A stretch of 2,877 nucleotides of DNA from Escherichia coli (GTDB taxonomy: Bacteria > Pseudomonadota > Gammaproteobacteria > Enterobacterales > Enterobacteriaceae). Under the pieces are notes generated by a model. The model ran no database searches. It was not told the origin of the DNA and was given only the letters and a program-made list of their open reading frames with translations. Location of the stretch: NCBI RefSeq assembly GCF_003334785.1, contig NZ_QOWV01000054.1, one strand, 5' to 3'. Position 1 is the first letter of the stretch. Every line of letters begins with the position of its first letter. Shown here piece by piece: positions 850 to 2,877 of this stretch. Made by a program: the position numbers and the translations under genes.

Positions 850-1308
850 TTGTCATTTTTTTTAATTACCCTTTGTTTATTTGTTGTTTACCTTGGGTTT
901 GATAACAATTCAAATTCTGACATCGTATTTTATGGACATAAAACACCAAAGAGCGTTGAGATATATCTTTCTGAAAAAAATATTATTTATAAAATAATTA
1001 ATGACCAAAAAATTAGTAGAGGGAATGGTCATTTTATAAGTATAATGGTTAATAATTACAGGACGCACTGTGGAGTGGTTGATATAAATCTTAATTTTTT
1101 CAATGATATTCTTTATAGCGTGCGATTAAAAAACATTAGTAAACTGGAGAATATGGAGTTCTGCGCTACAAAACAACGGGTGTATTTTAGTGATAAAAAC
1201 AAGAAGGCTAGTTATAAAATAATTAATTATGGAGACTATTATGATGTTGATTATTATGATAACAATTTGAAAAATGAAGTTTTTGACTGGATTGGTAAAT
1301 GGTCATAA
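850..1308 (+). CDS. Hypothetical protein, candidate cognate immunity protein for the Rhs C-terminal toxin (152 aa if the TTG start is used)
   Basis: ORF 850-1308 lies directly downstream of the toxin tip on the same strand with an 8-nt gap. It is AT-rich like the tip. TTG at 850 is the first possible start in this frame after an upstream stop at 793-795; the first in-frame ATG is at 1045. The assignment is by position only; I recognise no domain in it. Confidence 0.55.
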   Translation: MSFFLITLCLFVVYLGFDNNSNSDIVFYGHKTPKSVEIYLSEKNIIYKIINDQKISRGNGHFISIMVNNYRTHCGVVDINLNFFNDILYSVRLKNISKLENMEFCATKQRVYFSDKNKKASYKIINYGDYYDVDYYDNNLKNEVFDWIGKWS

Positions 1309-1478
1309 TGAACAACACCAGAAAGAGAAAAATATAAAATACATACAGAAAGACATGAGAGCAAGGGACGGGGCAGGGCAAGATCATGAAAATTGTGATG
1401 TAAATCACGATTTTCATCTTTGCTTTAACGCCTACAGGTGATCAAAATTTAACCTTTGGAATAACTAAAAAGATAAAA

Positions 1479-1489: not shown

Positions 1490-2634
1490 GTGAGTATTCA
1501 AAGTTTGCTTGATTATATTTCAGTGACCCCTGATATACGACAACAAGGAAAGGTTAAACATAAATTATCTGCTATTTTGTTTCTCACCGTATGTGCAGTA
1601 ATTGCAGGTGCCGATGAGTGGCAGGAAATTGAAGATTTTGGACATGAAAGACTTGAATGGCTAAAGAAATATGGTGATTTTGATAATGGCATTCCGGTCG
1701 ATGACACCATTGCACGCGTTGTGAGTAACATTGACAGTTTGGCCTTTGAAAAGATGTTTATTGAATGGATGCAGGAGTGCCATGAAATCACTGATGGTGA
1801 AATTATAGCAATAGATGGAAAGACCATAAGAGGCTCCTTTGATAAGGGAAAAAGAAAAGGAGCAATCCATATGGTGAGTGCATTCTCGAACGAAAATGGT
1901 GTTGTACTGGGGCAGGTGAAAACGGAAGCCAAAAGTAATGAGATTACAGCCATTCCAGAGTTGCTTAACCTACTGTATTTAAAGAAAAATTTGATAACCA
2001 TTGATGCTATGGGCTGTCAGAAAGATATCGCTTCGAAGATCAAAGATAAAAAAGCAGATTATCTTCTGGCAGTAAAAGGCAATCAGGGGAAATTACATCA
2101 TGCATTCGAGGAAAAATTTCCTGTAAATGTGTTTTCTAATTATAAAGGCGATTCGTTTAGTACGCAGGAGATAAGTCATGGAAGAAAAGAAACACGTTTG
2201 CATATTGTCAGTAACGTAACGCCTGAACTTTTGTGATTTTGAATTCGAATGGAAGGGATTAAAAAAGCTTTGTGTAGCATTGTCATTCAGGCAGAAGAAA
2301 GAAGATAAATCAGCAGAAGGTGTAAGCATCCGATATTATATTTCATCAAAGGATATGGATGCTAAAGAATTTGCACATGCTATCAGAGCGCACTGGCTGA
2401 TCGAGCACAGTCTTCATTGGGTGTTAGATGTAAAAATGAATGAAGATGCCAGCCGGATAAGAAGAGGAAACGCAGCCTAAATAATATCTGGAATAAAGAA
2501 GATGGCACTGAATTTATTAAGAGATTGCAAAGACATTAAGGGTGAAGAGGAAAAGAAAGAAGGCTGCGTTAAACACAGGGAAAGATCATCAGAAGTTCAC
2601 TTTTTGTACTAAACAATTCGCATTTTATGTTTAA
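1490..2634 (+). pseudogene. ISAs1-family (Rhs-associated H-rpt-like) transposase, disrupted by two frameshifts and one in-frame stop
   Basis: Frame 2 (1490-2236) gives MSIQSLLDYISVTPDIRQQGKVKHKLSAILFLTVCAVIAGADEWQEIEDFGHE...AIDGKTIRGSFDKGKRKGAIH...NEITAIPELL...DAMGCQKDIA...YLLAVKGNQ...[19 protein letters not shown], then stop. Homology continues in frame 0 from about 2235 ([20 protein letters not shown]...YYISS...[29 protein letters not shown]), then an in-frame TAA at 2478-2480, then IISGIKKMALNLLRDCKDIKG, then a shift to frame 1 near 2540 (VKRKRKKAALNTG...) ending at TAA 2632-2634. Total span is about 381 codons against about 378 aa for intact family members as I recall. Confidence 0.85.
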
Positions 2635-2707
2635 AAATTGAGATATTCCTTATTACCTAAAGCTGTTTTTTATTGCTTACACATGATCAAATACTCCTTA
2701 CATAATT

Positions 2708-2713
2708 AAGGAG
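2708..2713 (+). promoter_or_regulatory. Shine-Dalgarno AAGGAG for the second transposase gene
   Basis: AAGGAG at 2708-2713 with a 6-nt spacer to ATG at 2720. Confidence 0.5.
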
Positions 2714-2719
2714 AACAAA

Positions 2720-2877
2720 ATGGAACTTAAAAAATTGATGGGACATATTTCTATTATCCCCGATTACAGACAAGCCTGGAAAATGGAACATAAGTTATCG
2801 GATATTCTACTGTTGACTATTTGTGCCGTTATTTCTGGTGCAGAAGGCTGGGAAGATATAGAGGATTTTGGGGAAAC
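2720..2877 (+). CDS. ISAs1-family transposase (H-repeat-associated protein, YhhI/YdcC-like), N-terminal 52 codons; 3' end lies outside the window
   Basis: ATG at 2720 with a strong RBS. The translation [52 protein letters not shown] closely matches the N-terminus of E. coli H-rpt proteins as I recall them. It is paralogous to, but clearly diverged from, the N-terminus of the pseudogene at 1490. Confidence 0.85.

Follow-up and report, generated by a model that had tools for sequence, protein, structure and literature searches.

The feature at positions 1490–2634 of the 2,877-nucleotide stretch of Escherichia coli DNA analysed here (the window) is the K-12 pseudogene yncI, a decayed copy of ISEc26 that is already annotated and known. 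Our account of it, which we regard as almost certainly correct, is that a decayed ISEc26 element lies at 1373–2575, that its transposase gene has been disabled four times and that its right end has been lost. The ISEc26 copy downstream of the RhsE toxin/immunity module still has the left inverted repeat, the 5′ leader and the GTG start, and it has been disabled by the insertion of one C at 2228, the conversion of E330 to a stop at 2478, a 5-bp deletion at 2540–2544 and an H-rpt/ISEc5 insertion at 2575|2576. In this last event a second ISAs1-family element, H-rpt/ISEc5 with its gene ydcC, landed inside codon 364. The K-12-type locus is also without the displaced 3′ tail of ISEc26 and its right inverted repeat, and the remnant would be inert DNA inherited along with the Rhs module. 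No evidence contradicting this account was found in our analysis. The finding concerns an ordinary, known pseudogene of a known insertion sequence and matters little beyond annotation hygiene; it provides a sharper description, with four disabling events in place of “frameshift plus stop”, a 3′ boundary at 2575 and the last 59 nt assigned to ISEc5. That one IS is nested in another, and that this arrangement occurs at two chromosomal loci, adds a little to what is known of the build-up and decay of Rhs-linked H-rpt arrays.

The RhsE locus and the family of the transposase

The window matches many E. coli genomes at 100% identity, and its sole difference from one MG1655 record (NZ_CP032667) is one T in the T-run at 856–863. 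Its content is that of the K-12-type RhsE locus, with the rhsE 3′ end, ydcD, yncO, yncI and the start of ydcC; in the MG1655 record the annotated order is the 3′ end of the rhsE pseudogene, ydcD, yncO (minus strand), a transposase pseudogene and ydcC. RefSeq/PGAP labels the feature “ISAs1 family transposase; frameshifted; internal stop”, with coordinates that map to 1490–2634 of the window, and the pseudogene flag is present in each K-12-type record inspected. The gene ydcC, starting at 2720, is labelled “ISAs1-like element ISEc5 family transposase”. yncI has been described as a pseudogene in MG1655 and as a full-length ISEc26-family transposase gene in O157:H7 Sakai (PMC11540155), and it has been employed as a chromosomal integration site (PMC11566304).

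Across the window the G+C content changes from about 0.6 (1–200) to 0.27–0.31 (801–1400). Within positions 1–841 the Rhs core ends with DPIGL/DPMGL motifs at about 307–395 and is followed by an AT-rich C-terminal tip, and then by ydcD and the IS remnants; this transition from core to AT-rich tip is the classic composite Rhs structure. The T-run at 856–863 has eight T in the window and seven in MG1655 NZ_CP032667. With eight, the ydcD frame from the ATG at 825 stops after about 25 codons, and with seven it yields the 160-aa YdcD. In O157:H7 F1273 and 2014C-3057, too, PGAP lists ydcD as “frameshifted”; the T-run may truly vary in length between strains, or long reads may have miscounted the homopolymer. 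When the entire window was searched against Rfam with gathering thresholds, nothing matched.

The assignment to ISAs1/H-rpt transposases, made earlier in a sequence-only reading of the window, was confirmed by profile and homology searches. The frame-repaired translation scored 412.5 bits against the NCBIfam model NF033564 (ISAs1 family transposase; cutoff 70), covering profile positions 1–314 of 314, and the unrepaired first ORF alone scored 293 bits. Pfam searches with the repaired translation placed PF13808 at residues 8–94 (6.5e-31) and PF01609 at residues 102–342 (9.9e-30), which is the ISAs1 architecture of an N-terminal DDE_Tnp_1_assoc domain followed by a DDE_Tnp_1 catalytic domain. 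A tblastn search with the intact neighbour YdcC, an H-rpt protein, recovered the homology split over two frames, at 56% identity and with E values of 4e-98 and 3e-33. The alignment of 23 homologues shows no variation at D109 or D172 and at least 90% conservation at E305, and the Pfam DDE domain points to these three as the putative catalytic residues.

Two further hallmarks of ISAs1 elements are missing from the window copy and present in its O157:H7 orthologue. The single uninterrupted ORF of about 370–390 aa is broken at 2228, 2478, 2540–2544 and 2575|2576, and of the paired terminal inverted repeats the left alone is found, at 1373–1390. The D109 and D172 codons lie 5′ of the first lesion and the E305 codon lies 3′ of it. 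With no frame joining all three residues and one terminal repeat missing, the copy should therefore neither make a transposase nor move as a two-ended element. Its disabling lesions are defined against an intact close orthologue and recur in independent genomes, as in a pseudogene, and its sequence identifies it as a dead, not a functional, ISAs1 member. That the copy has lost its activity is our inference, as is the order in which the events took place.

Four lesions, a nested H-rpt element and the IS left end

A database search returned, as an intact relative, the 390-aa ISEc26 family transposase WP_000027427.1 (P0001), which is 94% identical and whose gene adjoins the same ydcD–yncO DNA in O157:H7 strain F1273. 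The lesions were placed by base-level DNA alignment to the intact ISEc26 of O157:H7, together with three-frame translation. The frame from 1490 reads to SNVTPELL and then meets the TGA at 2234–2236; the next frame starts with an 11-residue stretch, runs on to RRGNAA and the TAA at 2478–2480 and continues from IISGIKK to KDIKG; the third frame, after KDIKG, reads VKRKRKKAALNT. The features, all on the plus strand, are as follows.

1373–1390, plus strand: left terminal inverted repeat of the ISEc26-like element, GCAGGGCAAGATCATGAA
1375–1426, plus strand: stem-loop at the IS left end, with a core 14-bp near-perfect stem at 1386–1417, between the inverted repeat and the transposase start
1490–2227, plus strand: transposase fragment A, codons 1–246, with the GTG start, the PF13808 domain and the D109 and D172 codons
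2228, plus strand: lesion 1, one C inserted (GAA[C]TTTTGT), shifting the frame at codon 247; DNA alignment column 849
2234–2236, plus strand: TGA resulting from lesion 1, which closes a 248-codon ORF
2235–2477, plus strand: transposase fragment B, codons 249–329, out of frame with the start, holding the E305 codon; second tblastn segment, E = 3e-33
2478–2480, plus strand: lesion 2, nonsense change GAA to TAA (E330 to stop), G to T at 2478
2540–2544, plus strand: lesion 3, a lone remaining GGGTG where the intact gene has GGGTGGGGTG; 5 bp lost in codons 351–353, second frame shift
2542–2575, plus strand: transposase fragment D, codons 353 to 364, the last one partial (VKRKRKKAALN, T)
2566–2575, plus strand: left copy of the ISEc5/H-rpt target site, 10 bp, GCGTTAAACA; true 3′ limit of ISEc26-like sequence
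2576–2877, plus strand: lesion 4, left end of H-rpt/ISEc5, with its inverted repeat CAGGGAAAGATCAT from 2576 and the ydcC ORF from 2720

The GTG start of fragment A is the PGAP start of intact ISEc26. At lesion 1 the window reads CCT GAA C TTT TGT GAT against CCT GAA TTT TGT GAT in the intact gene (full intact state, GAATTTTGT), so that the 1-nt frame change proposed for about 2229–2236 is accounted for by a C inserted at 2228 (within 1 nt), the proposed range being the stretch up to the TGA. The in-frame TAA had been read correctly and replaces the GAA of E330, a column that is invariant in the 23 homologues. The second frame change had been located well, at 2538–2545, and proves to be a 5-bp deletion, not a 1-nt change. 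The intact gene here reads ATTAA GGGTG GGGTG AAG, a perfect tandem of which one unit is gone in the window, and the loss would be a slipped-repeat deletion of a kind typical of replication slippage. Each lesion is thus fixed at base level by alignment to intact ISEc26, and none is an alignment artefact. All three of the lesions first proposed are present, but their total was one short, as an H-rpt/ISEc5 insertion cuts the 3′ end.

Homology to ISEc26 does not run the full length of the gene, as had been claimed, but ends abruptly at about 2575–2577, inside codon 364 of 390. Positions 2576–2634 (translated as “GKDHQKFTFCTKQFAFYV*”) are the non-coding left end of ISEc5/H-rpt, 59 nt that PGAP counts into the pseudogene, and the 19 codons read between AALNT and the stop at 2634 come from the left end of ISEc5. 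The segment 2576–2719 is present in about 5,300 genomes, independently of yncI, and the whole H-rpt/ISEc5 element measures 1291 bp from CAGGG to the CCCTG after ydcC. In strain SI-NP020 the order is GCGTTAAACA, a nested ISEc1/5 element (1290 bp), GCGTTAAACA again, then CATGTTATATAG and the ISEc26 tail, which comprises 111 bp with the right inverted repeat. Here one IS has inserted into another, within codon T364, and has duplicated 10 bp of its target. O111:H8 8234, 2014C-3057 and UTME-7 also have this 111-bp tail 3′ of the nested element.

Downstream of ydcC the ISEc26 tail is absent in K-12 and PK5, and it is absent from any position in K-12 genomes. K-12 has neither the right copy of the 10-bp target site nor the right inverted repeat of ISEc26, and at the K-12-type locus the ISEc5 right end abuts GGCATTATTG without a target duplication. 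The dead ISEc26 element in fact spans 1373, the start of its left inverted repeat, to 2575. A loss of the K-12 tail by simple recombination inside the nested H-rpt was tested and is not supported, as the SNPs between the pptA-locus and yafV-locus copies, which concentrate in the first 500 nt of H-rpt, form a mosaic with no clean breakpoint. H-rpt is reportedly 1291 bp long with a 1134-bp ORF, and tandem defective H-rpt copies are said to occur in RhsC, which would be an analogous situation.

The 1307-bp O157:H7 ISEc26 is bounded by an 18-nt terminal inverted repeat (94% complementary), with arms at 2974–2991 and 4263–4280 of the O157:H7 locus sequence L002, and positions 1373–1390 of the window reproduce the left arm exactly. 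The ISEc5 repeat CAGGGAAAGATCAT resembles the ISEc26 repeat GCAGGGCAAGATCAT, and the terminal repeats of ISEc26 and ISEc5/H-rpt have the common core CAGGG(C/A)AAGAT. ISAs1-family elements produce a short target-site duplication of 8–10 bp on insertion; a search of O157:H7 for such a duplication flanking ISEc26 itself gave none that was convincing.

The RNA fold of 1373–1500 has an energy of −34.4 kcal/mol, with a z-score of −4.7 against shuffled sequences, and the left-end hairpin was also picked up by a terminator-like scan as its sole notable match. The stem-loop is extended by inverted-repeat bases that pair with 1419–1426, and it includes the yncO start codon on the opposite strand; any function assigned to it would be conjectural. 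In a sigma-70/terminator scan of 1300–2877, promoter-like sites were fewer than in shuffled sequence and none was found upstream of 1490. YncO (1223–1408, minus strand) starts at 1408, inside the ISEc26 left end, and reads outward over the inverted repeat at 1373–1390, so its first 12 codons, plus any promoter, would be IS-derived. It also overlaps the 3′-terminal part of ydcD, which lies on the other strand.

Spread of the lesions and alternative readings

To follow the lesions across the species, short queries centred on each of them were compared with 5426 complete E. coli genomes, matches to the K-12 state being exact over 61–65 nt. The counts are given below; for lesion 3 the intact state was counted in genomes that covered 80% or more of a 132-nt intact query spanning the lesion-3 and ISEc5 insertion sites.

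Lesion 1 (C inserted at 2228): K-12 state exact in 2144 genomes; intact state exact in 311
Lesion 2 (TAA at 2478): K-12 state exact in 2197 genomes; intact state exact in 309
Lesion 3 (5-bp deletion): K-12 state exact in 1882 genomes, with 325 more differing by 1–3 positions; intact in 310

The lesions are therefore common to about 40% of complete E. coli genomes (about 2,200 of 5,426), and the intact state is found in about 310, the examples listed being mostly O157:H7. No intermediate alleles, carrying a subset of the lesions, were evident among the 5426 genomes; the intact counts are nearly equal (311, 309 and 310), which leaves room for a handful of such alleles at most. Six pseudogene alleles were fetched from two loci, those of K-12 and PK5 beside pptA and those of SI-NP020, O111:H8 8234, 2014C-3057 and UTME-7 beside yafV, and all six carry the three lesions and the same ISEc5 junction. 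One sampled O111:H8 genome has an unrelated SNP at 2522 and keeps the lesion-3 deletion. What the alignments and genome counts show directly is the lesions themselves, where they lie and how widely genomes share them, as well as the nested insertion and the target duplication that accompanies it. The lesions are real, shared and old, and a strain-specific mutation is excluded; the copy was probably dead already in the common ancestor of all sampled pseudogene copies.

This sharing across genomes means that the lesions are not sequencing errors and not recoding, in agreement with the earlier judgement that the element is long dead; the intact orthologue is a single 390-aa ORF. Homopolymer miscalls do occur in these assemblies, as the one-T difference between the window and MG1655 at 856–863 illustrates. 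However, no lesion is a homopolymer-length change, each K-12 state is exact in about 1900–2200 independent complete genomes with the intact state confined to about 310, mostly O157:H7, and RefSeq flags the pseudogene in all K-12-type records inspected, so that frame changes and a stop arising from sequencing or assembly errors in an otherwise intact gene are hardly conceivable. Programmed frameshifting is known from IS families such as IS1 and IS3, and this precedent is what a recoding explanation, with ribosomal frameshifting at 2228–2236 and 2540–2545 and readthrough of the TAA, could draw on. It would demand three independent recoding events, whereas the intact orthologue and all 23 aligned members are uninterrupted single ORFs of about 362–398 aa; moreover, the C-terminal 27 codons are physically gone, with ISEc5 DNA in their place, and the lesions are simple mutations of an intact allele about 1% different. 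We consider recoding of this kind to be next to impossible.

A further reading is that the 248-aa N-terminal ORF (1490–2236) is still translated, giving a truncated DNA-binding protein that might act, for example, as a trans-acting inhibitor of the neighbouring H-rpt. The native GTG start is kept, with AAGGA 7 nt upstream, the PF13808 domain is complete, gene calling has yielded an identical 248-aa product, whose cluster (P0010) has 2147 member sequences, and the terminal repeats of ISEc26 and ISEc5 are alike. Against this, the ORF is no more conserved than the flanking dead or non-coding DNA (99–100% identical), and its three polymorphisms among the sampled pseudogene alleles, too few for dN/dS, are all missense and all at second codon positions. 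K-12 has Ala at the D28 column that is invariant in the family alignment of 23 homologues, no sigma-70-like promoter match lies upstream of the start, and the gene has served as an integration site (PMC11566304). That the fragment is made and acts in this way, the one reading under which any function is left, is thus very improbable, the intact start region being the one support found; the 248-codon ORF does have a plausible Shine-Dalgarno sequence and start codon, from which a truncated product may still be made. A slightly wider proposal, that the remnant is not wholly inert, either through a 248-aa fragment with a DNA-binding-type domain but without the full catalytic triad that would modulate H-rpt/ISEc5, or through an IS left end that would supply the yncO start codon and expression signals, is marginally less improbable and still quite unlikely. 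A decayed ISEc26 thus remains our preferred reading.

The decay itself has not gone far. With the lesions set aside, 10 substitutions and one A-run indel separate the K-12 copy from that of O157:H7 across about 1205 nt. The coding differences are five missense changes (codons 13, 28, 89, 163 and 360) and one synonymous change (codon 143), plus the nonsense change. Compared with one Salmonella homologue as outgroup (P0002), A28 and Y163 are derived on the pseudogene lineage. The alanine at the invariant column 28 would fit relaxed constraint, the numbers being too small for a formal test. The description “long-dead” is accordingly supported by the wide sharing of the lesions and not by heavy decay, as divergence is small.

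Related copies and comparison with known elements

A module composed of the Rhs core, ydcD, yncO and the ISEc26 copy is found at two chromosomal sites in different strains, the yafV-ivy-fadE locus (L002, L003, L005, L006) and the pptA locus (L001, L007), both of which are listed as Rhs locations by Archer et al. 2011 (PMC3032704). The nested H-rpt copy at yafV is a pseudogene too (“internal stop”), whereas ydcC of K-12 is intact. The H-rpt copies of the two loci show about 35 differences in their first 500 nt (L001 8575–9865 against L003 4676–5965, L005, L006 and L007), the ISEc26 DNA directly left of the nested H-rpt shows 1–3 differences in 1205 nt between loci, and the nested H-rpt of PK5 is a mosaic of both H-rpt types. 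These patterns suggest that, following a single insertion event, the several H-rpt copies within a genome underwent gene conversion with one another.

An ENA metagenome contig encodes, beside nfrB/nfrA-like genes (L008, 1004–2140), an intact 378-aa hybrid transposase, P0008. From residue 1 to about residue 160 it matches the K-12 yncI reading exactly, T13, A28 and M89 included, and the remainder is YdcC/ISEc5-like, with the switch point in the shared SNEITAIPELLN stretch. P0008 looks like a recombinant of ISEc26-type and H-rpt-type copies that would bypass all of the yncI lesions. In UTME-7 (L004, 1 to about 3400) the Rhs core, the ydcD region, the yncI copy and the 5′ part of the nested IS are about 75–88% identical to other strains, with many small indels, and identity is back to about 100% from about 3800 on; all three yncI lesions are still visible. 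Either the assembly was poorly polished over this stretch, or the copy has truly diverged or been hypermutated.

Neither the yncI annotation nor the published description (PMC11540155) resolves the 5-bp deletion or identifies the last 59 nt of the annotated feature as ISEc5 left-end DNA; both give frameshifts or a premature stop. The closest known element is ISEc26 of O157:H7, which has about 98.6% DNA identity to the window copy over 1205 nt and the same left inverted repeat, leader, GTG start and upstream Rhs core, ydcD and yncO. It is intact, 1307 bp long, with both inverted repeats and a single 390-aa ORF, whereas the window copy carries all four lesions (inserted C, TAA, 5-bp deletion, ISEc5 insertion) and is without the last 27 codons and the right inverted repeat. 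The chromosomal site also differs, the window copy lying at pptA and the O157:H7 ISEc26 at yafV. The H-rpt/ISEc1–ISEc5 elements, represented by ydcC, belong to the same IS family, have the same domain architecture, likewise lie downstream of Rhs cores and have terminal repeats with a similar core, but their identity to the yncI copy is 56% for the protein and about 68% for the DNA, and K-12 ydcC, unlike yncI, is an intact 378-aa ORF within a complete 1291-bp element.
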